Assembly: GCF_039916245.1 (NCBI RefSeq)
Contig: NZ_JBDSLS010000108.1
Location: 1,230-65,229, forward strand
Source of the DNA: Gelidibacter sp.
Lineage (GTDB): Bacteria > Bacteroidota > Bacteroidia > Flavobacteriales > Flavobacteriaceae
DNA length: 64,000 nucleotides
Reading direction: 5' to 3'
The notes beneath the pieces were generated by a model. The model ran no database searches and was not told the origin of the DNA. It worked only from the letters and a program-made list of their open reading frames with translations. The position numbers and the translations under genes were made by a program. Shown piece after piece: positions 3-54,227 of this stretch (within the stretch, counting starts at the first letter, position 1; each line of letters opens with the position of its first letter).

Positions 3-743
3 ATCGACAAGCTCAAAGATGTGAGTGAATTGCAGGAAGAGTTTTTGGATACCTTGCTCCGAAAGAAAGAACCCATTAAAAAAAGCAGACTATTTCAAGC
101 GGCTTCCATCGTTTATTATACTTCCGTAGAACAAAAATTTATTTTTAATCGTTTTGTTCAAGGAAAAATCATAAAAGCGCCAGAAGGTTCAGGTGCTGAA
201 TATATGACTAGCTGGAGCTTTTTTGATGTCGGCTGCAACCGACCATTTATCTGCTATATGTACTTCGATTTTGAAGGTTCTAATATTGAAAACAACAAAA
301 CACAAATTTACGAGGTACTAAAAAACTCAGCCGATAGAGACATGACCTTAGAGGTCATGGCGTATGGCATTGATAGAAAATTAGAGGATATCAAACCAAA
401 ACATATCAAAAGGGTTGATTTGGGACCTTTTCATAATGTTTATGCCAAGGACGAAAATCAAATTACCCATGCCATTTTAAAAAGTATTGCCAATAAAGAG
501 GTGCCATTGGAATCGTATGCATTGTCCTTAAGTATTGACGAAGTGACTTCTGGAAGTGAATTTTCTGAAGGCGGCTATTTCTCCAAACAGATCTTACAAA
601 AATGGAACGGACCCATCCAAAAAAGTTATGTCTTGGCGCCACATCGCATTATTCAGTTATTGTACAGTAAAACACCTGAAATCATGAATGGGTTGGCCAA
701 ACCACCGATTCAGATTGCGGATTTGAAGATAAGTAAAGAGTAG
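3..743 (+). CDS. Hypothetical protein, 5'-truncated by the window edge; first visible gene of the AAA operon
   Basis: Frame is open from position 3 (IDKLKDVSELQEE...), so the GTG at 21 is not the real start; stop TAG 741-743; no recognisable catalytic motif. Confidence 0.8.
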   Translation: MDKLKDVSELQEEFLDTLLRKKEPIKKSRLFQAASIVYYTSVEQKFIFNRFVQGKIIKAPEGSGAEYMTSWSFFDVGCNRPFICYMYFDFEGSNIENNKTQIYEVLKNSADRDMTLEVMAYGIDRKLEDIKPKHIKRVDLGPFHNVYAKDENQITHAILKSIANKEVPLESYALSLSIDEVTSGSEFSEGGYFSKQILQKWNGPIQKSYVLAPHRIIQLLYSKTPEIMNGLAKPPIQIADLKISKE

Positions 744-781: not shown

Positions 782-835
782 ATATTTCGATTTGAAATTG
801 TTTTAGTCATTAATATCAAAACTGAGGGCTGAAAA

Positions 836-915
836 ATGGATTATAAAGATGATAGTGAACTCTTAAGTTATATGGTGAAAAATTTTGGATTAAAATATTA
901 ACGGCAATCTAAAAG
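836..915 (+). pseudogene. Decayed copy of the 3' end and downstream spacer of the adjacent four-helix-bundle gene
   Basis: 860-901 reads LLSYMVKNFGLKY* versus LLNYMINNPDKFGLK* at 1268-1315; both are followed by GGCAAT(CT/TC)AAAAG and a heptamer arm. Confidence 0.65.
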
Positions 916-943
916 TAAGACTGAAGACTGCCAACTGAAGACT
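916..943. repeat. Heptamer tract, right arm R1, ending 6 nt before ATG 950
   Basis: TAAGACT GAAGACT GCCAACT GAAGACT then AAAAAC ATG. Confidence 0.9.
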
Positions 944-949
944 AAAAAC

Positions 950-1315
950 ATGGGTTTCAAAAAATTATTAGCATATCAGAGAGGATTTGATTTAGCCATG
1001 GATATTTTCCACGTGACAAAGGGTTTTCCGAAATCCGAACAATTTGTATTGACGTCTCAAATGGTAAGATCAAGCCGAGCTGTTTGCTCAGCAATTGCAG
1101 AAGCTTATAGAAAACGACAATATGAAAAGCATTTCAAAAGTAAATTATCTGATGCTGATAGTGAAAATTCTGAAACTCAATTGTGGTTAGATTTTGCTTT
1201 GGCTTGAGATTATATAGCTGAACCTAAGAGAATAGAATTACAACTAAAGAGTGAAGAAATTGGAAGACTCTTAAATTATATGATCAACAATCCCGATAAA
1301 TTCGGATTAAAATAA
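950..1315 (+). pseudogene. Four helix bundle protein (23S rRNA IVS-protein family) with an in-frame TGA at codon 86
   Basis: Family motifs LLAYQRGFDLA, FPKSEQFVLTSQMVRSSRAV, IAEAYRKR, SETQLWLDFA. After TGA 1205-1207 the same frame continues DYIAEPKRIELQLKSEEIGRLLNYMINNPDKFGLK to TAA 1313-1315. Confidence 0.85.
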
Positions 1316-1342
1316 TAATGGCAATTCAAAAGATAGAACACT

Positions 1343-1405
1343 ATAGACTACGGACTGCAGACTGCCAGCTGAGGACTGCCCGCTGAGGACTGCCAACTGA
1401 AGACT
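1343..1405. repeat. Heptamer tract, right arm R2 (9 units), ending 8 nt before the AAA ATG
   Basis: ATAGACT ACGGACT GCAGACT GCCAGCT GAGGACT GCCCGCT GAGGACT GCCAACT GAAGACT then TAAAAAAT ATG. Confidence 0.9.
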
Positions 1406-1413
1406 TAAAAAAT

Positions 1414-3372
1414 ATGCAACAAAACTCCACATTCCCCATAAAACAAAACGAACTCGATATGCTTCGTGATGAAGCAGCATCGTATCTCAAAAGCATCCAA
1501 TGGGAGCAAGGGCAACGTGCCAAAAGCAAAGACAAAAATGCTAAGGACGATTCAATTCTGCTTTATCTTTCTAGAGCCAATAACGGCTCAAATAATCCGG
1601 AAACGACTTCGGTATCTAAAACGATTTTGGAGCTTAAAAAACGTCTGTTGCCAGATTCTATTGCCATTCCTGTGTTACTCAATCAAACCTTATATGCCGT
1701 TCAGGAAGGTCTGACTTTGGGGATTTGGATCAAGGACAGTTATTATCATGCCTCAGGATTATCCAGTTTAAATGAGCGTAAAGCTTCTTTGGACAGCTTG
1801 GGCAAAAGAGAATATGAAAGCAAAATGCACACCGCTACAGCGTTCATGTTGTTTGCCGCGGCCTATAATATTTTACATAACCTTAAATCGTATGCGTCGG
1901 ATGATTTGAGCGTCATGAAACAGAAATTTGCTGGAATTCCTGAGGTGTCGTTATTAACGCCATTAAAAGGTGTGGCCTGTACTTTATTTTATTATGATAA
2001 GTATTTGGGACATCCAGATATTATCAAAAGCGATAAGGACGTGGCTGATTTTACAGTGGTGTTTTTTGAAGCGCTGATTGACGAAATCCAAATGCGAAAA
2101 TCTACTTTAGAATATCAAGAAACTATTTTGGATCGCACTTATAAACTGGAGCATTCAGATTTCGCGATTTCTGGATGGAATAACGCTTTCGCCGGTGCTG
2201 CCAAAAGTATAGAGTTCAACAAAATAAAGTTTGAGCAAATTGTCGGTAATAAAGACGCCAAACATTTTGCCCGGCGTTTAACGGAGCGAATGTTGAGTTA
2301 TGATTTTACGGCAAAAAAAAATCCGTTTCAGGAATTGGGCGGATTTATGCCAGTCTTTATGGGCTACGGCATCCCTGGAACAGGAAAAAGTATGCTCATT
2401 GCCGCTATTGCGACGCGATTAAAAGAGTATTGTGACCATTTAGAAATCCCGTTTTTATTTCATCCGATGCCAGATACCTTGATCTCCACTTTTCAAGGTG
2501 GTTCGGCAGAGAAAATGGTGGAGTGGATGAAACCCATGCAAGATCCCACAAAATTGATTTTTGCGCCGATTGATGATGCCGAAAACAATTTACAGGAGCG
2601 AACCGCTCAAGGGGTTTCTGCCGGTGTTAAAGAAGTCATTGGAGTGTTTTTGAGATATACGGAAGGCGCGTACGCAGTAAATTATGGCAACAGCGCCATC
2701 GGACTATTTACCAATTTACCAGAAATGCTGGATAAAGCCGTGATTTCGCGTGTGCAAGGACGATTCAAAATTGATGGTGCGCGAACGGAAAACGACTTTT
2801 TGGATCAGGATCATTTATGGTGGCGCAAGTTACAGGACACCATGCCAGATTTTATAAATATGAAAAATCCTGATCAATATAAATATCTTCAAGATCAAGG
2901 TTTGGCAAAAAGTATGGGAGAAATCTTGAAATCTGTGGATAAGCCTTCAGAAGAACGAGTCCATGCCGTTTATGATCGTGTTGAAAAGCAGTTTCAAACG
3001 AATGAACATCAGTTTTACGCCAATTTATATAAGGAAATCCAACAGGTTTTTCCATTCTTTTCATCGCGTGATGTCAGGAATATCCAATCGGCCATTTCAT
3101 TGCGTTTAACTGATTTTGATTTGGAAACGGCTTGGTTCGATAATCCGGAATTTTATTTTAAACAGACGTATGATACCAAATTCAACATGCTACAGGAATT
3201 GATGCGCGCTAATATGAAAGGTCTTAATTTTTCAGAAATAAGACGTCAGGAAGTGGTGCGTTATCTTGATAATGTGGCCACTATAGCCGACACCGATTTT
3301 AAACGTCAAGTCGATTCAAGAGTCAATCAGCTCAATATAGAATTGGAAGCACGAAAGAAGTTTGAGAAATAG
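1414..3372 (+). CDS. AAA+ ATPase (classic AAA clade-like) with a long uncharacterised N-terminal region
   Basis: Walker A GIPGTGKS (2368-2391), pore-loop-like LISTFQG, Walker B IFAPIDDAE, sensor-1 LFTN, SRH-like LDKAVISRVQGRF. Confidence 0.85.
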   Translation: MQQNSTFPIKQNELDMLRDEAASYLKSIQWEQGQRAKSKDKNAKDDSILLYLSRANNGSNNPETTSVSKTILELKKRLLPDSIAIPVLLNQTLYAVQEGLTLGIWIKDSYYHASGLSSLNERKASLDSLGKREYESKMHTATAFMLFAAAYNILHNLKSYASDDLSVMKQKFAGIPEVSLLTPLKGVACTLFYYDKYLGHPDIIKSDKDVADFTVVFFEALIDEIQMRKSTLEYQETILDRTYKLEHSDFAISGWNNAFAGAAKSIEFNKIKFEQIVGNKDAKHFARRLTERMLSYDFTAKKNPFQELGGFMPVFMGYGIPGTGKSMLIAAIATRLKEYCDHLEIPFLFHPMPDTLISTFQGGSAEKMVEWMKPMQDPTKLIFAPIDDAENNLQERTAQGVSAGVKEVIGVFLRYTEGAYAVNYGNSAIGLFTNLPEMLDKAVISRVQGRFKIDGARTENDFLDQDHLWWRKLQDTMPDFINMKNPDQYKYLQDQGLAKSMGEILKSVDKPSEERVHAVYDRVEKQFQTNEHQFYANLYKEIQQVFPFFSSRDVRNIQSAISLRLTDFDLETAWFDNPEFYFKQTYDTKFNMLQELMRANMKGLNFSEIRRQEVVRYLDNVATIADTDFKRQVDSRVNQLNIELEARKKFEK

Positions 3373-3417
3373 AGAAAAGAGGGAAGAAAATAGAGTATAG
3401 AAAATAGACAATAGAAG
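3369..3417. repeat. Heptamer tract (ATAGAnn family, 7 units) starting at the AAA stop codon
   Basis: ATAGAGA AAAGAGG GAAGAAA ATAGAGT ATAGAAA ATAGACA ATAGAAG. Confidence 0.8.
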
Positions 3418-3461
3418 TTCATCAATAAACATGAGAGACGAACTGAAATAAAGGCTAATAA

Positions 3462-3502
3462 ATCAGTGGAAATCAGCAGAATCAGCATCATCAGTGTTCT
3501 AT
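3462..3502. repeat. ATCAG 9/10-mer repeat element
   Basis: ATCAG at 3462, 3472, 3481, 3490; the end ATCAGCATCATCAGTGTTCTAT resembles 55280-55301 and 55391-55412. Confidence 0.7.
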
Positions 3503-3574
3503 GAAAATTAAACGAATTATTGTCTAATATGAATGAGTTCATTAAACCGATTAACACCACACAAACAACAAAGA

Positions 3575-4168
3575 ATGTCAGAAAACATAAAAAATATCGT
3601 CCATAAAACCCTTTCTAAAGCTTGGGCAACTTTGCTTCAGATTGATTATGATTATAAATTCAAAGACGGTACATGGAAACGCGTTTCAAGAGAAAGTTAT
3701 GATCGCGGAAATGGCACAGGCGTTTTGTTATATAATATTGAAAAGAGGACTGTTATTTTGACGAAACAATTCCGGATGCCCATTTACGAAACTAATCCTG
3801 ATGAAGCCATGTCACTTGAAGTCTGCGCTGGAGCCATTGATAAAAATCAATCCCCAGAATCGACCATCATTCGAGAAGTGGAAGAAGAAGTGGGGTATAA
3901 AATAAAAGAAGTTAAAAAGGTTCTGGAAGCTTATATGTCTCCTGGAGCATTAACAGAAAAAATGTATTTATTTATTGCGCCTTATACAGATGCTATGAAG
4001 ATTAATGAAGGTGGCGGTGTTGCGGGAGAACATGAAGAGATTGAAGTTTTGGAAATGCCGTTTTTAAAAGCTCTCAAAATGATGGAATCAGGAGACATTC
4101 GAGATGCTAAAACAATCATGTTGTTACAGTATGCACAAATGAATGATTTAATAAAGAATAAAGAATAA
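3575..4168 (+). CDS. nudK: Nudix hydrolase, GDP-mannose pyrophosphatase NudK/YffH-like
   Basis: Nudix box GAIDKNQSPESTIIREVEEEVG; RESYDRGNG, YMSPG and DAKTIMLLQY typical of NudK; ATG 3575 is preferred over 3533. Confidence 0.75.
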   Translation: MSENIKNIVHKTLSKAWATLLQIDYDYKFKDGTWKRVSRESYDRGNGTGVLLYNIEKRTVILTKQFRMPIYETNPDEAMSLEVCAGAIDKNQSPESTIIREVEEEVGYKIKEVKKVLEAYMSPGALTEKMYLFIAPYTDAMKINEGGGVAGEHEEIEVLEMPFLKALKMMESGDIRDAKTIMLLQYAQMNDLIKNKE

Positions 4169-4226
4169 AGAATAAAGAATAAAGAATAAAGAATAAAGAA
4201 TAAAGAATAAAGAATAAAGAATAAAG
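4150..4226. repeat. Perfect tandem repeat (AATAAAG)x11
   Basis: 77 bp counted directly; the nudK stop TAA 4166-4168 lies inside it; (TAGAAAC)x2 follows at 4234-4247. Confidence 0.95.
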
Positions 4227-4253
4227 TTTATTTTAGAAACTAGAAACCAGTTA

Positions 4254-5489
4254 ATGGAAAAGCTAAAAGCAGCACATTTATTTAGAGATGAACTCATCCC
4301 AATTAGTGGGAAGCTTGTTGAGCGTTACAATCAGTGCCTGAAAACTTTGGGAATTGCTGAAACAAAACTCTCGGGTTTTTCTATTGACGGAATTGGTTGG
4401 AGTCCTGAAATTGCTGAAGAAAAAAAGGAAATTCATTATCTAAATAATGGAGAGGCCAATCCAAACGGTATCATCATAACGCCATTGCAAAAGGGAAAAC
4501 CTGTGTATGTGCCTTTTCATACTTTTGATAGGGATATGATGCAGCACATCTTTAAAACCTATGAAGAAAAAATCAATGATATTACGAGAGACTGTGCGAT
4601 TTGCATTGATTTTGACCAATATATCGATGCCTTTTATGAGCCTTTAGATATTTTAAAATACAAGGATATTTCCATAAGTTTTAAACTGATCAACAATCTT
4701 GATAAGGAGCAAAAAAAGCAGTTTCAACTGATTGATAGCTTTAAACAGGGCAATAATTTTATTGATGAACACCTGCAGCAACAGTTGTTGGACTCGGCAA
4801 AAACCTATGGCGATTTAAGACACCGAAATTTAGAGCTCAATGAGCTTTATTTCTCAACGGATTCGTTTTACACCAGCGCATTTGGAGGTGTGTATCTATT
4901 ACGAGATTTCATAGCGCCAATTATGGTGTTCGAAGATGAGAAATGGCATAAGGAAGCCATAAAAGATACGTCTCATGAGGTTTTTATTTATCACATTTCG
5001 CAACCAGAATTGCTCGATAAATTACAAGACCATTTAATTATCGAATATGATTTAGAAGAAGTGGTAAAGACACCACGCTATGAACGTATCAAAAAATTCA
5101 TGTTTTCTCAGATTTTAAAGGACACCCAAAACCCAATAAAAGATATTTTGGATGACAAAGTGCTGTTCAAAGGCTATTTGAACAAAATGACGATTGAAGA
5201 CCGTAAGAAAGTCATGAGTGTTGAGCTTTATCTCGAAAAAATGGAAGTCAGCAACCAATATAAATTGGCAGATATTGTAGATGTCAAACTTTTTGAAGCC
5301 TTGCAACAACCGCATTCATCATTGAGTCCGAAGCATCAGGATTTGATTTGGAAATTATTGGTTAATATTTCGCCTTTGGATGTTTTATTCTTGTATTGGT
5401 ATGATAAAGAGCAGTTTTATAAAAATTATAAGGATTGGGATGAATCGTTGAAAGATTGGGTGATTGAAACCATCCGTAACAATATATAG
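4254..5489 (+). CDS. DUF6638-like protein of unknown function
   Basis: 411-aa ORF; LVERYNQCL, FSIDGIGWSPEI, YLNNGEANP and FYTSAFGGVYLLRD match my recollection of DUF6638 (not searched). Confidence 0.6.
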   Translation: MEKLKAAHLFRDELIPISGKLVERYNQCLKTLGIAETKLSGFSIDGIGWSPEIAEEKKEIHYLNNGEANPNGIIITPLQKGKPVYVPFHTFDRDMMQHIFKTYEEKINDITRDCAICIDFDQYIDAFYEPLDILKYKDISISFKLINNLDKEQKKQFQLIDSFKQGNNFIDEHLQQQLLDSAKTYGDLRHRNLELNELYFSTDSFYTSAFGGVYLLRDFIAPIMVFEDEKWHKEAIKDTSHEVFIYHISQPELLDKLQDHLIIEYDLEEVVKTPRYERIKKFMFSQILKDTQNPIKDILDDKVLFKGYLNKMTIEDRKKVMSVELYLEKMEVSNQYKLADIVDVKLFEALQQPHSSLSPKHQDLIWKLLVNISPLDVLFLYWYDKEQFYKNYKDWDESLKDWVIETIRNNI

Positions 5490-5545
5490 CTAAGAGCTAG
5501 AAGCATGAAGAATAGAGTTGGAAGATTGAAGCACGAAGCATGAAG
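5487..5545. repeat. Heptamer tract, left arm of four-helix-bundle element 2
   Basis: TAGCTAA GAGCTAG AAGCATG AAGAATA GAGTTGG AAGATTG AAGCACG AAGCATG AAG; begins with the upstream stop TAG. Confidence 0.85.
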
Positions 5546-5844
5546 TTTTATATCTTTATAATTTAGATATTAGAGAGTTGTAATTTGAAGGTTTGATTCT
5601 TTCGCAAAAACGCGAGGAATATTTTGCAACATAAAACTTTAGCAATAAAATAAGAAATGATGTACGTAATGACTCGGTTGAGTTTTTAATATTTCATCGA
5701 TAAAACGTATAAGAAATGTCATTTTTTGAAGTTTTGGAATATAAACTGAAGTTAAACTAAAGTGTTTTGCTTTCAGTTTCTTGCTTCAAACCTAAATATA
5801 AGTTTATGATTCAAATAGAAATAATTTTATTAAATAGCAATAGT

Positions 5845-5879
5845 CAAGCTTCGTGCTCCACGCTTCCAGCTTCCAACTT
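5845..5879. repeat. Heptamer tract, right arm R1 of element 2, 8 nt before ATG 5888
   Basis: CAAGCTT CGTGCTC CACGCTT CCAGCTT CCAACTT; reverse complement of the 5487-5545 consensus. Confidence 0.85.
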
Positions 5880-5887
5880 TTTTTATC

Positions 5888-6248
5888 ATGAAATTTAAAT
5901 TTGAAAATTTAATAATTTGGCAGAAAGCGATGGACTTGGGAGAGGAGATGAATGCTTTAGCATATAAGTTTCCAAAAGAAGAGCTATATAATCTTTCTTC
6001 CCAAGTTAGAAGAGCGTCAGATTCTATAGCATTGAATATTTCAGAAGGTTCAATTTTGCAATCAGATGCTGAATATAGAAAATTCTTAGGTTATGCAATA
6101 AGATCAACTGCCCGAAGTAGTGACGTGTTTGCATAAAGCGAAAAGAAGAAATTGTTTGAATGAAGACGATTTTCTTAAATTCTATAAAGCATGTTTTGAT
6201 TTAATGAATATGACCATTGCATTTAGGAACAGAATTAAAAAAGCATGA
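5888..6248 (+). pseudogene. Four helix bundle protein (IVS-protein family), frameshifted by one extra C
   Basis: FKFENLIIWQKAMDL, FPKEELYNLSSQVRRASDSIALNISEGS. Removing one C from GCCCGAA (6110-6116) restores EVVTCLHKAKRRNCLNEDDFLKFYKACFDLMNMTIAFRNRIKKA to TGA 6246-6248. Confidence 0.85.
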
Positions 6249-6421
6249 AGCACGAATTTGGATGCGCGAAGTAATACTTTTTTTACCACAATAATTGTTA
6301 AACTTCGCGCTTCATGCTCCCAACTTCAAACATAAATATGATAACTTATGATTGCATTAGAAATAGAATTAATCATCTGCAAGTTCAAAGCTTCGGGCTT
6401 CGAGCTTCAAACTTCCAGCTT
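6241..6421. repeat. Heptamer tracts after element-2 gene: left-type 6241-6271, right-type 6299-6333 and 6380-6421
   Basis: AAGCATG AAGCACG AATTTGG ATGCGCG AAG / TAAACTT CGCGCTT CATGCTC CCAACTT / AAAGCTT CGGGCTT CGAGCTT CAAACTT CCAGCTT then TTACAC ATG (6428). Confidence 0.85.
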
Positions 6422-6427
6422 TTACAC

Positions 6428-6946
6428 ATGACACTAGAAATTATCGTTTTTATCGGCTCAATTTTATTCGGAATTCTTCTGTATTGGAGAGAGTCAAACG
6501 GCAACGGACTGTATCGTTTTTTTAATAAAATGATGTATTCCAAAAAGCTTCAGATGTCGCCTAATGATCCTACAGGTTTTCTATATCAACAAAAATTCTT
6601 GCTGCGGTTGGTATTTGTTGGAATGATATTTCTGGTTGGAATTTTGATTGCGAGATTCCTGATTCCAATTGATGTTGCTACGATTTCAGTATTTGCTTCG
6701 AGTATTGTCGGTACGCTTTTGGGAACTTATATTGGCGGATTTATTTTAAAGTCTGAAAAAATAATTGACGCGCAAAGTGATTCTATAGAGCGAAAATTGG
6801 ATGGTGCCATTGATCAAGGTCGTGATTTTATTAAGGATATTTCAACACGACAACCAAAAGTTGTAGAAGAAGCAGAAAAGGAAGTTCTCAAAGATCCGAA
6901 TCAAAAAAGTGCGCGAGAACGCTTGAAGGATAAAGGATTGATGTGA
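6428..6946 (+). CDS. Hypothetical membrane protein (about 3-4 TM helices, charged C-terminal tail)
   Basis: The ORF-track start 6314 runs through repeat DNA; ATG 6428 starts the hydrophobic segment MTLEIIVFIGSILFGILLYW. Confidence 0.75.
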   Translation: MTLEIIVFIGSILFGILLYWRESNGNGLYRFFNKMMYSKKLQMSPNDPTGFLYQQKFLLRLVFVGMIFLVGILIARFLIPIDVATISVFASSIVGTLLGTYIGGFILKSEKIIDAQSDSIERKLDGAIDQGRDFIKDISTRQPKVVEEAEKEVLKDPNQKSARERLKDKGLM

Positions 6947-7038: not shown

Positions 7039-8736
7039 ATGCTAAAAAAATATTGGAATAGAGGAAGTAGACAAAAAACCATAACCATCATTGGAGTAGT
7101 GGTTTTAATAGCATTATTGTTTTTCCTTCGTGATGATTATCAACCCTTTTTATTATGGATCAGGAAATTCATTTTTGTAATTCTGGTGATAGGTTTGGTA
7201 TTGTTTTTCGGGTTGCGAAGTTTTCGAAACTCGGTCGGCGTTGGACGGCGCATTGGTATTTTGGCACTTTTAGTGTTGTTTTTTGGATCGCTTTACTACA
7301 TTGGTTGGCACTTTAAGATGTATGATTATATGAAAACCTACAATGTTTTCAATCATTTGAATAAAGTTCAAATCAACGAATTGCCGCTTACACAAAACGA
7401 ACGCATCCAACCATTGCGCAATATTTTCTCTATGGCCAACGAATCGGTTGGAGAAACGAAGGACGTGTCGTTGCCGCATTTGGTAAGAGTCGATGGCGAG
7501 AACAGATGGACGATGGCTATCCAGCCGTCTGAAAAATATACCATGCAGCAAATCAGTGAGAATACTGAAGAGATCTTTTCAGTTTCCAGTACCTCGCCAT
7601 TTCCAAGGTTTTCCAGTGAAAATCGCATTCCTGTGACCTTTTCTATTGGCGAATCTTTAAAGTTTAGTAGAAATACTTATCATGCCGTGGTACAACGTTT
7701 CAATATTTTTCAGTTGTTTACCATGGAGCCTGGAGATACGTTTTACATGAAAAACGATTCAGGAAAATGGGTAGAAGTGGTGAGTTTGATCAAATGGAAG
7801 GGCTTCTTTTTTCCATATCCAACTTTTGGAGGTGTGATGGTCATTGATAGTGGGAAACACGACTTCAATGATTATGTGGAACGTATCTTGATCGGGAAAG
7901 GCACATATATCAGTCCAGAGGAAATGAAAAATCATCCGTTTTTGACCAAGCAGAATACGCTCTCAGAAAAAGTGTCACGCTTACAAGCGGAATCTTTAAA
8001 GTTTTTAGGCGGATTTACGGATCCATTGCCATGGAAAATGCAAACGGCCGTAAAAATTCCCGATATGCCAGACGATCAAAATGAACAGCCTTTTGTAACC
8101 GATTTCAATTTTGAGGGCGTCGATGCTAAAGCTTATAATGGTTTGTACCATTGGTTCGGATTGGAGCCCATTGGCGATGAGCGCACAAGTTTGGCCTATA
8201 GCGTATTTGTGCCTGCTGATGGCACCGATAAATTATATTATTATGATCATGCGGCCAGGAAACAAGGTTACGCCGGAGTTTCCGCAATGCCTTTAAAAAT
8301 CATCGAATCCCGTAAGGAGGTGGATTGGTCGGTAAATAAACCTGTTGAATTTAGACCATATATTAAAGATATCGCGGGTAGAAGACGGATGTTTTTCTTA
8401 GGCACCGTTTCAGCAGTAAAAGAATATTCAAAAAAGTTTGATGGATCGGCCACACCAGATTTAGCACTGATTGATAGTGAATATCGTGATGTCATCTGGA
8501 TTGATGTCAAACATCCAAGTCAATGGGATAAAACCGTCTATGATCAATTGAACGAAGCGTGGAGAGCCAGTGAAGGCATTGGTTATTATTATGATGAAGT
8601 CAAAACGCCATCTGACTTGGATATGATGCAAAAAGAAATGGATTCAATTCAGTCCATTCCCAAAGTGAATGCGAATACAGATCAAATAAAAAAATTACAA
8701 CGTCAGATTGATTCTTTAAAATCGGTTGAGAATTGA
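7039..8736 (+). CDS. Hypothetical membrane-anchored protein (3 N-terminal TM helices, large soluble domain)
   Basis: 565-aa ORF; three hydrophobic stretches in the first 90 aa; short helical C-terminus. Confidence 0.8.
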   Translation: MLKKYWNRGSRQKTITIIGVVVLIALLFFLRDDYQPFLLWIRKFIFVILVIGLVLFFGLRSFRNSVGVGRRIGILALLVLFFGSLYYIGWHFKMYDYMKTYNVFNHLNKVQINELPLTQNERIQPLRNIFSMANESVGETKDVSLPHLVRVDGENRWTMAIQPSEKYTMQQISENTEEIFSVSSTSPFPRFSSENRIPVTFSIGESLKFSRNTYHAVVQRFNIFQLFTMEPGDTFYMKNDSGKWVEVVSLIKWKGFFFPYPTFGGVMVIDSGKHDFNDYVERILIGKGTYISPEEMKNHPFLTKQNTLSEKVSRLQAESLKFLGGFTDPLPWKMQTAVKIPDMPDDQNEQPFVTDFNFEGVDAKAYNGLYHWFGLEPIGDERTSLAYSVFVPADGTDKLYYYDHAARKQGYAGVSAMPLKIIESRKEVDWSVNKPVEFRPYIKDIAGRRRMFFLGTVSAVKEYSKKFDGSATPDLALIDSEYRDVIWIDVKHPSQWDKTVYDQLNEAWRASEGIGYYYDEVKTPSDLDMMQKEMDSIQSIPKVNANTDQIKKLQRQIDSLKSVEN

Positions 8737-8890: not shown

Positions 8891-10366
8891 TTATCCAAAT
8901 CGCTTCTGTAAATCCGCAACTACCATCTCAATCTGGTCGTTTTTGTCTTTTCGTTCCAATAGTATTGGTGGCGATTGCCGTACTTGACAATCAGCAATGG
9001 CACATCGTTCGCAGGTTACGCCAACATCCTGGGTTTTTATTTTAGGATCTTTGAGGAAAGAAACTCTACGTTGTAGTTGTTTATTAATCAAGAGTCCGAT
9101 GCTAATGCTTCGGTATTGATTCTCTTTAAATGGATCTTTTGTTGCCGAGGATAAAACCAGGTATTTCATATCGTCATCAGGATAATTCGAAATTTGCAAG
9201 TCAAAAACATGATCTTCTTTGGTCTTACTGATGGTTTTTAAAACTTTTAAAGAAATCCAACGTCGGCAATAATGTTCATTGGTTTCATTACCATGTGGCG
9301 AATGCTGCTGCGATAAGTGTAATTCTTTTTTAAGATGAAAGCGTTCACTTCCTGCACGATGCGTAAACCGTAAGAAAAATAAATCCTGAATATTAAATTC
9401 TTTGGGCAGTACGTTGGTCAGGCGTTGATAAAATGATTCTGGAGAGGCGTTGAAAGCTGCGATGATTTCTAACAACAAATGCTTATCAAAAATCTCTTTT
9501 TCAAATAGCGTGGTTAATTGTTCTGAAATAGTCTTTTTTGGCAAAATGAGTGCACCGGCAAAATACGAGGCGTAAAAATTATTCAAAACCTGATCGAAAT
9601 TTTCAAATTTAATCCATGAAAAGGTATAGAGGCGCTCTTTATATTCTAAATAATTATAAGCAATTTCTTTAGCATAAATAAAAGTACGCTGAGCATCGTC
9701 CATTTGACTGGCTAGTAAAAGGGTCTTCGTTTTTGGTACAAACACGGAACGAAGCATATCCAATGTCTGATGTTTGTCCAATTCAGTCTCATTAAATACA
9801 TAGCCATATTCCTCAATAAGGATTTCCTTCAATTCGTCAGAACTGATCGGTTTTTCCAAATCGATTTGATAGGATTTTGCAAACTTTATCACCGCTTGTT
9901 CAATGTCTTCAAAATAATTATGATTGGCTTCTTGAAAGGATCGTAAGGAGGCCAAATAAAAGCTTTCTCTACTGAAATTATAGTTCTGTGCAATTTCGAT
10001 AATGGTACTTATAAAGGCATTGACCTTTGCCGGCGCATTCGAAACGATATCAATGAGCGTGCTTTCTTGAATCCCGAAAAGTTCCAAAGGAATTTCTTTT
10101 AGAATTTTAGATTTTAAGATATCGCCAATGGGCGAAAGGTTTTTGTCCAATTTCAAAGAGACCATCTGGTCGTAAGGCACTTCCAGTTTTTCAGAAAGAA
10201 TGGCTATTTTATCGGGTTTTGGATATTTTTTTCCCTTTTCAATTTCGTTTAAATACGACTTTGATAATCCTGATAATTTAGATAGACCAAAAAGCGAAAG
10301 ACTTCTCTCTGTCCTGAGCTGCTTTAATTTAAGTCCAAAAATAAGTTTGATATATTCTTCTTCCAT
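8891..10366 (-). CDS. XRE-family HTH regulator with an IrrE/ImmA-like domain (RamB/ScfR-like), probable aceBA regulator
   Basis: N-terminal HTH (LKQLRTERSLSLFGLSKLSGLSKSYLNEIEKG); C-terminal CERC..DC motif; divergent from aceBA. Confidence 0.8.
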   Translation of the reverse strand: MEEEYIKLIFGLKLKQLRTERSLSLFGLSKLSGLSKSYLNEIEKGKKYPKPDKIAILSEKLEVPYDQMVSLKLDKNLSPIGDILKSKILKEIPLELFGIQESTLIDIVSNAPAKVNAFISTIIEIAQNYNFSRESFYLASLRSFQEANHNYFEDIEQAVIKFAKSYQIDLEKPISSDELKEILIEEYGYVFNETELDKHQTLDMLRSVFVPKTKTLLLASQMDDAQRTFIYAKEIAYNYLEYKERLYTFSWIKFENFDQVLNNFYASYFAGALILPKKTISEQLTTLFEKEIFDKHLLLEIIAAFNASPESFYQRLTNVLPKEFNIQDLFFLRFTHRAGSERFHLKKELHLSQQHSPHGNETNEHYCRRWISLKVLKTISKTKEDHVFDLQISNYPDDDMKYLVLSSATKDPFKENQYRSISIGLLINKQLQRRVSFLKDPKIKTQDVGVTCERCAIADCQVRQSPPILLERKDKNDQIEMVVADLQKRFG

Positions 10367-10436: not shown

Positions 10437-10487
10437 TGTTTTTTAAAAAAGATTTTTATATCATTGTTGTATCAAAACATCAACATC

Positions 10488-12086
10488 ATGAAAAACAACA
10501 TTTTAAGCGTACCAAAAACTCAATTCTCAGGGGTTGTAGAAAACTACTATCCTGAAATATTAACCGATGAAGCCCTCGAATTTTTATCAGTTTTACACGA
10601 AAAATTTAATCAAGAGCGTCTTGAATTACTAACAGCTAGAGAAAAACAACAAAAGCTATTTGATAAAGGCGCGTTCCCGGAATTCCCTGCTGAAACTAAA
10701 AACATCAGAGAAGGGAATTGGGTGGCTGGCGCAATTCCGAAGGACTTATTAGATAGACGTGTGGAGATTACCGGGCCTGTTGACCGAAAAATGGTCATCA
10801 ATGCCCTGAATTCTGGAGCTAAAACTTTTATGGCCGATTTGGAAGACAGTAATGCACCAACTTGGGCCAATGCGATTGAAGGGCAACAGAATCTTATTGA
10901 TGCCAACAACAAAACCATTTCTCTCTACGATGCTCAAAGGAGGAAATCCTATAAGCTTAATGACGAAACGGCGGTCTTAATGGTGCGTCCAAGAGGTTTA
11001 CATCTCAATGAGCGCCATATGCAGATCAACAAAGAAGAGATGTCTGGTAGTTTAGTGGATTTTGGATTGTATGTTTTTCATAATACCAAAACTTTGTTAG
11101 AAAACCATTCGGCACCGTATTTCTATTTACCAAAATTGGAGCACTATTTGGAAGCACGCTGGTGGAATCAAGTTTTCGATTTCGCAGAAAATTATATGGA
11201 AGTGCCAATCGGGACTTTTAAAGCCACAGTTTTGATAGAAACCATTACGGCAAGTTTTCAGTTGGACGAAATTATCTATGAGCTTAAAGATCATATTGTC
11301 GGACTAAACTGCGGTCGTTGGGATTATATTTTCTCATATATCAAAAAATTCAGAAATCATGACAATTTTGTGGTCCCAAATCGTGATCAAGTAACGATGA
11401 CCACCCCATTTATGGCGGCTTATTCAAAATTGGTCATTCAGCGTTGCCATAAACGAAGGATCCATGCCATTGGTGGGATGGCGGCTCAAATTCCGATCAA
11501 GAACAATCCAGAAGCCAACAATGCGGCCTTGGAAAAGGTCCGCTTAGATAAGGAGCGCGAAGTCAAAAATGGTCACGATGGCACTTGGGTAGCACATCCT
11601 GATTTGGTAGCGGTGGCGATGAGCGAATTTGACAAACGCATGCCAACGGCCAATCAGTTTCACGTGACCAGAGATGATGTCGTGATTACAAAAGAAAATT
11701 TAGTTGAGCTGCCTTTAGGTACAGTAACCGAAGAAGGCGTGCGGAAAAACATCAACGTCGGCATTTTATATACTGAGGCCTGGTTAAGAGGTCACGGTGC
11801 CGTAGCCTTATACAATTTGATGGAAGATGCGGCGACCGCAGAAATTTCAAGAACTCAAGTTTGGCAATGGCTGAAGAATGAAGTCGTTTTGGAAGATGGA
11901 CGAAAATTCACAAGAGCGCTTTACGATACTGTTTTTGATGATGAAGTTGAAAAACTGATCAAGGAATTTGGAAAAGTAGACATGAAAAATACAAAATTCA
12001 AATTAGCGATAGAGTTGTTCAACACTTTGGTAACCAACAAGGAATTCGAAGAGTTTTTGACGTTGCCAGCCTATCAATACCTATAA
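10488..12086 (+). CDS. aceB: Malate synthase A
   Basis: RRVEITGP, FMADLED, VRPRG, LNCGRWDYIFS, GGMAAQIP, DGTWVAHP, MEDAATAEISR; ATG 10488 preferred over TTG 10464. Confidence 0.95.
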   Translation: MKNNILSVPKTQFSGVVENYYPEILTDEALEFLSVLHEKFNQERLELLTAREKQQKLFDKGAFPEFPAETKNIREGNWVAGAIPKDLLDRRVEITGPVDRKMVINALNSGAKTFMADLEDSNAPTWANAIEGQQNLIDANNKTISLYDAQRRKSYKLNDETAVLMVRPRGLHLNERHMQINKEEMSGSLVDFGLYVFHNTKTLLENHSAPYFYLPKLEHYLEARWWNQVFDFAENYMEVPIGTFKATVLIETITASFQLDEIIYELKDHIVGLNCGRWDYIFSYIKKFRNHDNFVVPNRDQVTMTTPFMAAYSKLVIQRCHKRRIHAIGGMAAQIPIKNNPEANNAALEKVRLDKEREVKNGHDGTWVAHPDLVAVAMSEFDKRMPTANQFHVTRDDVVITKENLVELPLGTVTEEGVRKNINVGILYTEAWLRGHGAVALYNLMEDAATAEISRTQVWQWLKNEVVLEDGRKFTRALYDTVFDDEVEKLIKEFGKVDMKNTKFKLAIELFNTLVTNKEFEEFLTLPAYQYL

Positions 12087-50661: not shown

Positions 50662-53112
50662 ATGAAAGAATCTAATTTTTTAAGTCTTGACAGTTTGTCA
50701 TTTCAAGAGTTTGATGAAAACTCGGAGTTAATTCCATTGATGACACCCGAAGATGAAGAGCAAATAAATAACGAAGAATTACCAGCAACCTTACCTATTT
50801 TACCATTGCGAAATACGGTATTATTTCCAGGGGTTGTCATTCCAATCACTGCCGGAAGAGATAAATCCATTAAGTTGATTAATGAAGCCAATAAGGGCAG
50901 CAAAGTCATTGGCGTTGTTTCTCAAAAAGATGGCAGTATCGAAGATCCTGAAGGTAAAGATATTTACACAACGGGTACAGTGGCCAGAATACTTCGTGTC
51001 CTTAAAATGCCTGATGGCAATACGACCATTATCATTCAAGGGAAAAAACGATTTGAAATTGATCAGGTCATCACAGAGGAACCTTATATTACAGCAACCG
51101 TTAAAGATGTTGAAGAGGCGAAACCTGCTGAAGACAATGAAGAGTTTTCAGCGATTATTGAATCTATAAAAGATTTGGCGCTACAAATTATCAAGGAAAG
51201 TCCAAACATTCCATCAGAGGCGAGTTTTGCAATCAAAAATATTGAGAGCAATTCCTTTTTAGTGAACTTTGTATCGTCAAACATGAACCTTTCTGTTGAT
51301 GAAAAGCAAAAGTTATTAGAAATCAGCAACTTGAAGGAGCGCGCATTGGCGACCTTAAAGTTTATGAACGTCGAATTCCAAAAATTAGCTCTTAAAAACG
51401 ATATCCAGTCTAAGGTTCAGAGTGATATGAACCAGCAGCAGCGCGAATATTTCTTGCATCAACAAATGAAAACCATTCAAGAAGAATTGGGTGGCGTATC
51501 TTACGATGAAGAGATTGATGAAATGAAAGCGCTTTCAAAAACCAAGAAATGGGATGACAAAGTTGATTCACATTTTCAAAAGGAATTGATGAAATTGCAA
51601 CGGATGAATCCGCAAGTTGCCGAATATTCTATTCAAAGGAATTATCTTGATTTGTTTTTGGAATTGCCATGGAATAAATTCAGCAAGGATAAATTCGATT
51701 TAAAAAGAGCACAACGCATCTTAGATCGTGACCATTATGGGTTGGATGATGTAAAGAAAAGAATCATCGAATATCTTGCCGTATTGAAATTGCGCAACGA
51801 TATGAAATCGCCGATCCTTTGTTTATACGGACCTCCGGGAGTAGGGAAGACGTCTTTAGGAAAATCGATCGCAGAGGCTTTAGGTCGAGAATACATAAGA
51901 ATGTCCTTAGGTGGTTTGCGTGACGAAGCAGAAATCCGCGGACACAGAAAAACTTATATTGGAGCCATGCCAGGACGTATCCTGCAAAGTTTGAAAAAAG
52001 CTGGCACTTCGAATCCTGTGTTTGTATTGGATGAGATTGATAAATTATCCAACAGTAATCAAGGTGATCCATCTTCTGCGATGTTGGAAGTATTGGATCC
52101 TGAGCAAAATTCAGATTTTCACGATAACTTTTTGGAGATGGGCTATGACCTTTCCAAAGTCATGTTTATTGCAACGGCAAATAGTTTGAGCAACATTCAG
52201 CCAGCTTTATTGGATCGTATGGAAATCATTGATGTGACAGGGTATACCATTGAAGAAAAGGTAGAAATTGCCAAACGTCATTTATTGCCAAAACAATTGA
52301 AGGAGCATGGTTTAACCGAAGGGGACTTGAAAATAGCCAAACCACAATTGGAGAAAATTGTGGAAGGGTATACCAGAGAATCTGGCGTGAGAGGACTTGA
52401 AAAGCAATTGGCTAAAATGGTGCGCTATGCGGCCAAAAACATTGCCATGGATGAAGTCTACGATAAAAAGGTATCTAATGAAGTTATTATTGAAGTATTG
52501 GGTTCTCCACGAATGGAGCGCGACAAATACGAAAATAACAATGTGGCGGGTGTAGTGACAGGGTTGGCCTGGACACGAGTAGGCGGCGATATTCTATTTA
52601 TTGAATCCATTCTGTCCAAAGGAAAAGGAACCTTGACCATAACAGGCAATTTAGGAACGGTTATGAAAGAATCGGCCACCATTGCCATGGAATTCATCAA
52701 ATCCAATGCTGCCGAATATGGGATCGACCCCGAAGTTTTCGAGAAATACAATGTACACATTCACGTGCCAGAAGGTGCAACTCCAAAAGATGGGCCAAGC
52801 GCTGGTGTCACGATGTTGACCTCATTGGTATCCTTGTTTACACAACGTAAAGTGAAAAATAGTTTAGCCATGACAGGCGAAATTACGTTACGTGGTAAAG
52901 TATTGCCAGTTGGTGGTATTAAGGAGAAAATATTGGCAGCCAAACGTGCCCGCATCACAGAAATCTTACTTTCTGAAGATAATAGACGTGACATTGAGGA
53001 AATCAAACCTGAGTATTTGAAAGGGTTAAAATTCCATTATGTAACAGATATGAGTGATGTTATTAAAGAAGCACTTTTGGACGAAAAAGTCAAGAACGCT
53101 AAAACCTTATAA
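50662..53112 (+). CDS. lon: Lon protease (endopeptidase La)
   Basis: [39 protein letters not shown]. Confidence 0.97.
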
Positions 53113-53116
53113 ACGC

Positions 53117-53142
53117 AACGGCAACAATTTGTTGCCGTTTTT
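53117..53142. terminator. Intrinsic terminator after lon
   Basis: AACGGCAACA-att-TGTTGCCGTTTTT. Confidence 0.75.
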
Positions 53143-53207
53143 GTTTGATTTAAAAATAAAGCAAACATATCAGCGTTTCAAGTAAGAAATATTACTTTTG
53201 TCATTCT

Positions 53208-54227
53208 ATGGCCAAGAGGATTACTGTTTTATTCTTTGTTTTTTCGAACATCTCAGTTTTCGCGCAACTTGGTGGCGAATCCACGTACCAGTTTTTAAAC
53301 TTGGTATCTTCGCCACGTCAGGCTGCATTAGGAGGAAAAGTCATTACTAATCTCGATTATGATGTGACCAGTGGCCTTTACAATCCAGCAACCATAAATC
53401 CTGAAATGGATAATCAATTGGCTTTAAACTACGCTAGTTATTTAGGCGGCATCTCTTATGGTACGGGCGCTTACGCCTATACTTGGGATCGGCACGTGCA
53501 AACATTTCATATTGGTATGACCTATATTAATTACGGTAAATTTGATGGATATGATCAAAACGGTGTTTCCACCGGAACATTTACAGGTAATGAAGCGGCG
53601 TTGTCATTTGGATATGCATTGCGTATTCCGTATTCTGATTTTTATGTTGGTGTCAGCGGAAAATTGATAACCTCAAAATTGGAGCAATACAATTCCATTG
53701 GCGGTGCGATTGATGCTGGAGTCATGTATATTAATGAAGATCTCGATTTTCATGCGGCCATATCTGTTAGGAATTTTGGAACGCAGTTTACGACTTATGC
53801 GGATCTGCATGAGAAATTACCACTTGAAGTCAATTTAGGACTTTCTCAAACCTTGCAACATGTGCCATTAAGATGGCATCTTACGTTTGATAATTTACAA
53901 CAATGGCCCATAGGCTTTTCTAATCCAGCCAGAGCAACCACAGATTTAGATGGTATCCAGACCCAAGAAAAAGTGGGGTTTTTAAATGAAGTCATGCGTC
54001 ATACGATTATTGGTGCAGAACTTTTTCCTGACCGAGGATTTAATCTGCGGTTGGGATATAATTTTAGACGTTCAGAAGAGCTTCGCATTGTGGATCAACG
54101 CAACTTTTCAGGACTTTCCTTTGGAATTGGCATCAAACTCAATACAATGCGTTTCAGTTATACACATGCGCGCTATACGAGTGCATCAAATACTAGTTTT
54201 TTTGGACTACAAATAGATTTACGATAA
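53208..54227 (+). CDS. porQ: Type IX secretion system protein PorQ
   Basis: QLGGESTYQFLNL, SPRQAALGG, YNPA, GFNLRLGYNFRR; next to cmk; -7 TACTTTTG 53193-53200. Confidence 0.8.
   Translation: MAKRITVLFFVFSNISVFAQLGGESTYQFLNLVSSPRQAALGGKVITNLDYDVTSGLYNPATINPEMDNQLALNYASYLGGISYGTGAYAYTWDRHVQTFHIGMTYINYGKFDGYDQNGVSTGTFTGNEAALSFGYALRIPYSDFYVGVSGKLITSKLEQYNSIGGAIDAGVMYINEDLDFHAAISVRNFGTQFTTYADLHEKLPLEVNLGLSQTLQHVPLRWHLTFDNLQQWPIGFSNPARATTDLDGIQTQEKVGFLNEVMRHTIIGAELFPDRGFNLRLGYNFRRSEELRIVDQRNFSGLSFGIGIKLNTMRFSYTHARYTSASNTSFFGLQIDLR

Follow-up and report, generated by a model that had tools for sequence, protein, structure and literature searches.

What does an ATPase do when its motifs place it among the AAA motors that thread polypeptides, and the residue expected to catalyse ATP hydrolysis is replaced by another? 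This question is raised by a gene of Gelidibacter sp. (NCBI RefSeq assembly GCF_039916245.1), which lies near the beginning of a stretch of 64,000 nucleotides (nt) of contig NZ_JBDSLS010000108.1 (positions 1,230 to 65,229; hereafter the window). The gene encodes an AAA ATPase of 652 amino acids (aa), called protein C here after its place in a gene cluster lettered A to F. Its Walker B motif reads IDDAE, where Asp388 occupies the site of the catalytic Glu. An earlier reading, made from the sequence only, had proposed an orphan unfoldase or disassembler with a substrate that may be encoded in the same operon. Judged by the comparisons below, the ATPase forms a new family within a known kind of protein (classical AAA), and it is probably the motor of a hitherto unknown cellular machine.

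The Asp-Asp Walker B motif across the family

The sequence-only reading had listed a Walker A motif, a pore-loop-like segment, a Walker B motif, a sensor-1 and a segment resembling the second region of homology (SRH), and each of these was found where it had been placed (Table 1). In HMMER alignments, the Asp-Asp (DD) pair of the Walker B motif lies opposite the Asp-Glu (DE) pair of VAT and Vps4B. Homologues of protein C number more than 1,700, and its identity between genera of Flavobacteriaceae is 84-94%, which puts the motifs far beyond chance. The closest named proteins, from G. pelagius, G. japonicus and G. maritimus, are 94% identical to it.

An exhaustive search of representative homologues yielded 438 clusters at 50% identity, 125 of them with E<1e-30 and mostly full length (~650 aa), and residue columns were counted in 66 full-length, diverse representatives that diverge to ~20% identity. 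Position 388 is Asp in 61 of these, Glu in four and Gln in one. Among 347 retrieved homologues aligned at the site, 338 carry DD and seven carry DE, such that the family motif is DD[AI][ED] as opposed to DE[IL]D in the classical clade. The DD homologues come from at least four phyla and include relatives at 20-30% identity. This spread bears on the possibility, entertained in the sequence-only reading, that DD is strain-specific decay, i.e., a recent inactivating mutation in a gene that is being lost. The deviation from the DE consensus is all that speaks for decay; the wide conservation of DD in orthologues, the intact reading frame, the very strong constraint and the confidently predicted fold speak against it, and we regard it as refuted. 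The alignments instead mark the DD Walker B as a signature of the family.

In a phylogenetic tree, the four DE representatives fall within one supported clade (96/87), which also holds one DD member, and the two large divisions of the family are DD throughout. Rooting with FtsH, which sits on a long outgroup branch, leaves the ancestral state (DD or DE) equivocal. Since the DE members share the pore loop, sensor-1 and Arg446 with the DD members, Asp and Glu appear to do the same job, and the alignments can be read as the same job done at different speeds rather than as inactivation of the site.

The remaining columns of the AAA core are highly constrained (n=66). Lys325 of Walker A is present in all representatives, Asp387 in 65 and an acidic residue at position 390 in 65. 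The pore loop has an aromatic residue at position 360 in 57 (Tyr in 31, Phe in 24, Trp in two), Gln361 in 54 and Gly362 in 65. Asn434 of sensor-1 is invariant, Arg446 is found in 65, and position 450 is Arg in 50 and Lys in 11 (61 with either). The near invariance of residues that serve only hydrolysis or threading argues that the site has not been inactivated. As a catalytic base, Asp is shorter than Glu, so hydrolysis by protein C is probably slow or triggered by a partner, and its presence throughout the family argues for a slower or gated motor in comparison with the classical examples named in the sequence-only reading.

Other AAA+ proteins of the Gelidibacter genome, namely FtsH, Lon, ClpX, RarA and DnaX, are all DE, and the sole other AAA+ protein with DD is DnaA (VLIIDDVQF), a slow ATP switch. 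This resemblance favours a different explanation, in which protein C would be an ATP-binding switch or scaffold with negligible hydrolysis, and ATP would hold together a ring or platform where A, B and D assemble. That ~97% of the family carry Asp where the catalytic residue is expected is in keeping with such a role, as is the example of NSF, whose hydrolysis residue is E329 in the D1 domain and D604 in the oligomerisation domain D2 (PMC2120109). NSF D2 is thus a classical-clade module that naturally carries Asp at the catalytic-Glu site. However, NSF has two modules in tandem, of which D2 is the second and has its role in oligomerisation, whereas protein C has a single module and keeps the sensor-1, Arg-finger and pore-loop residues, which imply ATP turnover and substrate engagement. 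The near invariance of those residues and the existence of a DE sub-clade with otherwise identical motifs also count against a pure switch or scaffold. Furthermore, Glu-to-Asp substitution in a ring translocase slows activity without abolishing it: the E179D variant of lambda terminase retains weak ATPase activity and translocates ~8-fold more slowly, which its authors put down to a slowed chemical step (PMC6379665). On this evidence, a switch or scaffold is considered unlikely.

Placement within the classical clade

Protein C matched only classical-clade proteins when compared with PDB sequences by phmmer (VAT, Vps4/SKD1, CdvC, i-AAA, Rpt4, FtsH and Pex6). A profile built from the 66 diverse members matched Cdc48, VAT, Afg2 and p97 at ~1e-36, a value that sums two modules, and the best single-module match was Vps4B at 3e-19. 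The AlphaFold2 model of the protein had a predicted local distance difference test score (pLDDT) of 82, and its top 50 Foldseek neighbours were all Cdc48/p97, Afg2, Rpt, Msp1 or NVL. No MoxR, STAND or helicase proteins, a grouping with which would have overturned the sequence-only reading, occurred among the PDB profile or Foldseek matches. Structure and profile therefore uphold the assignment to the clade of substrate-threading motors made in the sequence-only reading. The protein also keeps the P-loop of this clade (GxxxxGK[ST], with G322, G324 and K325 invariant in 66/66 members) and the SRH, which aligns with TNRPDxxDPALLRxGRF of VAT.

The AAA core of protein C belongs to the classical clade and to none of its named families. 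Pfam AAA (PF00004) covers aa 318-453 at 36.1 bits (cut-off 21.2) and is the sole Pfam domain of the protein. At family level, the 66 members gave NCBIfam matches to the models for CDC48 (38 members), CdvC (28), PAN (22), IteA (18), ARC (12) and FtsH (12), all of them far under the curated cut-offs. The CdvC equivalog NF041006, for example, gave protein C 16.6 bits against a cut-off of 650, and the best family member reached E 7.8e-13. The description of the ATPase as an orphan thus gains support, and the protein would represent a family of protein-remodelling AAA ATPases that had not been described so far.

Comparison with the nearest characterised systems helps to define this family. Cdc48, p97 and VAT are the top profile and Foldseek matches and have the SRH, two Arg fingers and the sensor-1 Asn in common with protein C, which differs in having one AAA module rather than two, no double-psi-barrel N-domain and the DD motif. 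FtsH is the only other classical-clade AAA found in the Gelidibacter genome, and its SRH and its Walker B context, of the DExD/DDxE type, can be aligned with those of protein C. However, FtsH possesses transmembrane helices, a DE motif (IIFIDEIDA) and an HExxH protease, and protein C lacks all three. Its highest 19-residue Kyte-Doolittle hydropathy is just 1.24, from which no transmembrane helix is predicted, and a motif scan of the 652-aa sequence found no HExxH; both absences had been noted in the sequence-only reading.

Regions flanking the AAA core

The sequence-only reading had left the N-terminal domain and the C-terminal extension unassigned, and profile searches of the PDB and Pfam scans found nothing for either. 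The structure search of the N-terminal domain that it had suggested was run here. Modelled alone with AlphaFold2 (aa 1-262), the domain had a pLDDT of 84.3 and a predicted template modelling score of 0.85. In the model, strands near its two termini (aa 5-9, 28-30, 63-65, 241-245 and 251-253) make up a small β-sheet, which packs on the long helices 87-114, 128-157, 183-198 and 207-231. Foldseek returned no neighbour from the PDB (best E 0.77, template modelling score ≤0.26) or from the viral structures of BFVD (best E 0.21). The lack of a structural neighbour indicates that the domain is not a MIT bundle, a Cdc48/NSF-type barrel or a PAN/ARC-type OB/coiled-coil domain.

The last ~175 residues form helices in the AlphaFold2 model, the final one being 45 residues long (606-651). 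This region includes a conserved block, F-[ST]-S-R552-D-x-R-N-I-Q (aa 549-558, nt 3058-3087), which opens helix 551-565 and contains the invariant R552. By eye, this block resembles the lid motif GFSGAD, and we infer that an Arg has been inserted near the place of sensor 2 in other AAA+ clades. Pfam lid models did not match the extension.

Table 1. Features of protein C, its gene cluster and the surrounding DNA. Coordinates are nt positions in the window unless a contig position is indicated.
Feature	Coordinates	Strand	Residues (aa)	Remarks
Partner A	contig NZ_JBDSLS010000108.1 3..698 (G000:C108)			Coiled-coil protein; upstream of the window; cut by the contig end
Partner B	3..743	+	353; C-terminal 246 in the window	Gene start at contig position 911; directly upstream of C
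Protein C, AAA ATPase	1414..3372	+	652	ATG start; stand-alone; classical clade
C, orphan N-terminal domain	1414..2199	+	1-262	
C, AAA core	2200..2841	+	263-476	Walker A, pore loop 1, Walker B, sensor-1, Arg fingers
C, Walker A	2368-2391		319-326	GIPGTGKS
C, pore-loop-like segment	2479-2511		356-366	LISTFQGGSAE
C, Walker B	2569-2583	+	386-390	IDDAE; Asp388 at the catalytic-Glu position
C, sensor-1			433-434	TN
C, SRH-like segment			439-451	LDKAVISRVQGRF
C, core residues			360-362; 387-388; 390; 434; 446; 450	Pore loop 1 [YF]-Q-G; DD; acidic; N434; R446, R450
C, helical C-terminal extension	2842..3369	+	477-652	
C|D junction	3373..4253			Passenger landing site
NudK/YffH-type NUDIX hydrolase	3533..4168	+		Between C and D
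Partner D, DUF6638	4254..5489	+	411	Pfam PF20343, 119 bits
Partner E, small membrane protein	6428..6946	+	~172	Three hydrophobic segments; charged C-terminal tail; start position probable
Partner F	7039..8736	+	565	Three N-terminal transmembrane segments; terminal coiled coil
Four-helix-bundle fragment	950..1207			B|C junction
Four-helix-bundle fragment	5888..6136			D|E junction
XRE-type regulator	8891..10366	-	491	Divergent from the next gene
Malate synthase-like gene	10464..12086	+		
AAA module of Lon-type protease	~51817..52230 (contig 53046-53459)			Protease of 816 aa

Conservation and distribution of the gene cluster

The gene for protein C is accompanied by a constant set of neighbours. 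The order A-B-C-(Nudix)-D-E-F was found in 74/87 loci, and in the rest the cluster is cut by contig ends or E is too divergent to be detected; the search for related loci returned close Flavobacteriaceae relatives only. Beyond this family, the cluster takes several forms. Pelagicoccus (Verrucomicrobiota) and Chitinophagales have the same order as Gelidibacter with no Nudix gene, Trueperaceae (Deinococcota) have A-B-C-D, a Vibrio vulnificus replicon has A-B-C-D only, and S. meliloti has A-B-C-D together with a DUF2333 membrane protein. F is kept in Verrucomicrobiota and Chitinophagales; S. meliloti has DUF2333 in its place, and no F lies beside the Vibrio copy. In all phyla examined, B orthologues lie immediately upstream of the AAA gene and the DUF6638 gene adjoins it. 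Of 301 sampled Bacteroidota genomes, four have the ATPase, and precisely these four have DUF6638; DUF6638 was found in 0/14 model-organism control genomes. Comparison of the lineages thus defines an invariant core of four cytoplasmic proteins, A, B, C and D, with a membrane partner that can be swapped. A-B-C-D is an undescribed module present in Bacteroidota, Verrucomicrobiota, Deinococcota and Proteobacteria, with no described counterpart.

The genes of the cluster are nearly contiguous in relatives, where B ends 1-14 nt before the ATPase start. In Gelidibacter, the junctions have been invaded by four-helix-bundle fragments, which are missing from relatives such as genome G279, where the genes are packed tightly. 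The fragments are truncated open reading frames of the '23S rRNA intervening-sequence protein' type (PF05635, TIGR02436).

Within the family, one or the other of two genes lies upstream in 55/76 loci, an EttA-type ABC-F gene being one of the two, and the GC content of the cluster matches its surroundings. These two features together indicate stable chromosomal inheritance within the family rather than residence on an island. They also bear on a further explanation, that protein C is an anti-phage defence ATPase akin to IetA/IteA and is carried on a horizontally mobile cassette. The patchy distribution across phyla would suit a mobile cassette, PADLOC gave a weak IetA match (24 bits, E 5.5e-6), and the NCBIfam IteA model matched 18/66 members, as given above. 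However, this similarity is limited to the generic AAA core, and protein C lies far under the family cut-offs (15.2 bits against 510). No IetS-type protease is encoded nearby, and a weak match to the Nudix gene is the only PADLOC match among the neighbours. The 84-94% cross-genus identity is unlike that of fast-evolving defence genes, and the shared upstream neighbours, which include a housekeeping gene of the EttA type, and the ordinary GC content are likewise unlike a defence gene. A defence function is therefore given only a marginal probability.

The C|D junction is a repeated passenger landing site (Table 1; also 806..1444 in locus L005, 8914..10659 in locus L092 and 1659..6718 in locus L008). 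Its occupants are a NudK-like Nudix gene in most Flavobacteriaceae, an alpha/beta hydrolase gene in genome G107, an endonuclease gene and ISRm16 in S. meliloti Ak57, and ~9 kb in genome G191 that include genes for a 1490-aa CheB-CheR-PAS protein and an RDD protein. The NUDIX hydrolase of the window is a lineage-specific passenger outside the conserved core: its gene is absent from the clusters of Verrucomicrobiota, Deinococcota, Chitinophagales, Vibrio and S. meliloti, and in G107 the alpha/beta hydrolase takes its place.

Some observations concern the S. meliloti copies. The Ak57 replicon CP090106.1 is labelled 'plasmid pSymB', a label that looks wrong for a chromosome-sized molecule of 3.72 Mb; it carries tdk, choVW, a choline-binding protein gene (choX-type) and fhs. 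In S. meliloti 1021, a ChvI-bound intragenic fragment is listed for SMc02733, at ~2.587 Mb (PMC3687685); this locus tag, guessed from the choXWV neighbourhood of the S. meliloti copy, is a candidate member of the cluster. If SMc02733 belongs to the cluster, the module would be linked to the ExoS/ChvI envelope regulon. For Vibrio and S. meliloti, a heat-shock promoter was considered and rejected: the Vibrio copy has plain sigma-70 sites, and the site in S. meliloti matches the housekeeping consensus no less closely, both judged by eye against consensus sequences.

Partner proteins and other features of the window

The partners of protein C are largely devoid of annotation. Apart from DUF6638 in D, proteins A, B, D and F received no Pfam, NCBIfam, PADLOC or PHROG assignment, and profile searches found no PDB relative of any of the four. 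No informative family or structural assignment was obtained for E, and DUF6638 was not mentioned in the searched literature. Across genera of Flavobacteriaceae, identity is 81-87% for A in the present alignment (82-90% in a wider search), 61-68% for B, 55-62% for D and 72-78% for F, as against 84-94% for C. Paralogy between B and D was considered and gained no support in this lineage (hhalign probability 0.15%). The reading frame of E is open from 6314 (210 aa); its orthologues have ~174 aa and start with MTLEII..., and the real start is probably Met39, at 6428 of the window. The large C-terminal domain of F is probably periplasmic.

The Bacteroidota versions of protein A have a disordered tail that is variable in sequence and closes with a conserved DD[LM]L[SGN]. 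The protein is labelled 'microtubule-binding protein' by NCBI in dozens of genomes, and 'chromosome segregation ATPase', 'myosin heavy subunit' or 'SbcCD ATPase subunit' by JGI. None of these names is supported by an NCBIfam or Pfam model, and the microtubule-binding label was rejected.

The character of A and the profile matches of C raise the possibility of true homology with Vps4/ESCRT-III systems (CdvC/CdvB, PspA/Vipp1), in which A would be a divergent ESCRT-III-type polymer and C its Vps4. Protein C resembles Vps4 and CdvC in several respects. It is stand-alone and soluble, with a single classical-clade AAA module, a helical N-terminal domain that would serve for docking and a further helical part at the C-terminus, and it is encoded beside a helical protein that could form polymers. 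Vps4 is also its best single-module PDB profile match, and the CdvC model matched 28/66 members. In addition, A is highly conserved and helical with a disordered C-terminal tail, the cluster contains membrane partners, and the Gelidibacter genome has no PspA gene. In contrast, the N-terminal domain of C has no structural neighbour and is not a MIT bundle, the Walker B motif has DD in place of DE, [YF]-Q-G makes up the pore loop, the C-terminal extension runs to ~175 aa, and the CdvC score falls far short of its cut-off. Furthermore, A is unlike ESCRT-III and PspA (hhalign probability 0.4% against 12 Bacteroidota PspA proteins; no Pfam PspA_IM30 or Snf7 match at E<=0.1), and B and DUF6638 have no ESCRT counterpart. 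Genome G191 holds the cluster and a separate PspA, and a survey of the neighbourhoods of PspA/Snf7 and AAA+ genes shows other architectures (PMC11237479). Homology with ESCRT-III systems is thus held to be very unlikely.

Further along the window, the cluster is followed by a gene for an XRE-type helix-turn-helix regulator and a malate synthase-like gene, a neighbourhood that is not conserved in relatives. The window also contains the AAA module of a Lon-type protease (Table 1).

A proposed slow or gated ring remodeller

The reading favoured here, with roughly even confidence, is that protein C would be a slow or partner-gated ring remodeller, the ATPase subunit of the undescribed module, acting on a partner encoded in the operon. 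The protein would assemble as a ring, its N-terminal domain would dock a partner, and its aromatic pore loop would use ATP to grip and pull a polypeptide in the central pore. Owing to the Asp, ATP turnover would be slow or gated by a partner, giving a low-throughput or gated remodeller in place of a high-speed unfoldase. A would be the most plausible client, because it is conserved as strongly as C, is long and helical like the proteins that AAA rings take apart, and has a disordered tail; the choice of A in particular is tentative, and held with clearly less than even confidence. In the Gelidibacter lineage, the reaction would probably take place at the inner face of the membrane via E and F.

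Several points weigh against this reading. The pore loop carries Gln at position 361 (54/66) where classical motors have a hydrophobic residue, and the modelled N-terminal domain resembles no known substrate- or adaptor-binding domain. The choice of A rests on its conservation, coiled-coil character and tail; the protein has no profile similarity to PspA/IM30 in hhalign comparisons, and its DD[LM]L terminus is missing from the Verrucomicrobiota and Deinococcota versions. Co-transcription of the cluster is presumed from gene spacing. Finally, the membrane partners vary between lineages, and a role at the membrane may therefore not hold for every copy of the module.

An extension of the ring-remodeller reading, which is rather doubtful, is that C and A form a new, non-homologous bacterial counterpart of machines that combine an AAA ATPase with a helical polymer, such as Vps4/ESCRT-III, NSF/SNARE and katanin/microtubule. 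By this analogy, A would build a conserved lattice or filament at the membrane, the slow DD-type AAA ring would remodel or recycle it, and B and DUF6638 would act as adaptors. Such a system would extend over at least five phyla.

Significance

To our knowledge, classical-clade AAA ATPases that stand alone are rare in bacteria (FtsH, ARC/Mpa and a few Cdc48-like proteins), and each of them defines a major pathway. Protein C would add a further one, with a fixed set of partners, ~84% cross-genus identity and a family-wide Asp, alongside which the other residues for hydrolysis and threading are kept. The family may also serve as a natural experiment on the effect of a Glu-to-Asp change in the Walker B motif of a working AAA motor. 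Copies in Sinorhizobium meliloti and Vibrio make the module genetically testable, and protein C provides a way into the study of a machine that occurs in Bacteroidota, Verrucomicrobiota, Deinococcota and Proteobacteria. If the analogy with AAA-plus-polymer machines is true, this machine would amount to a cytoskeletal or membrane-maintenance system, driven by ATP, of a kind not described before.

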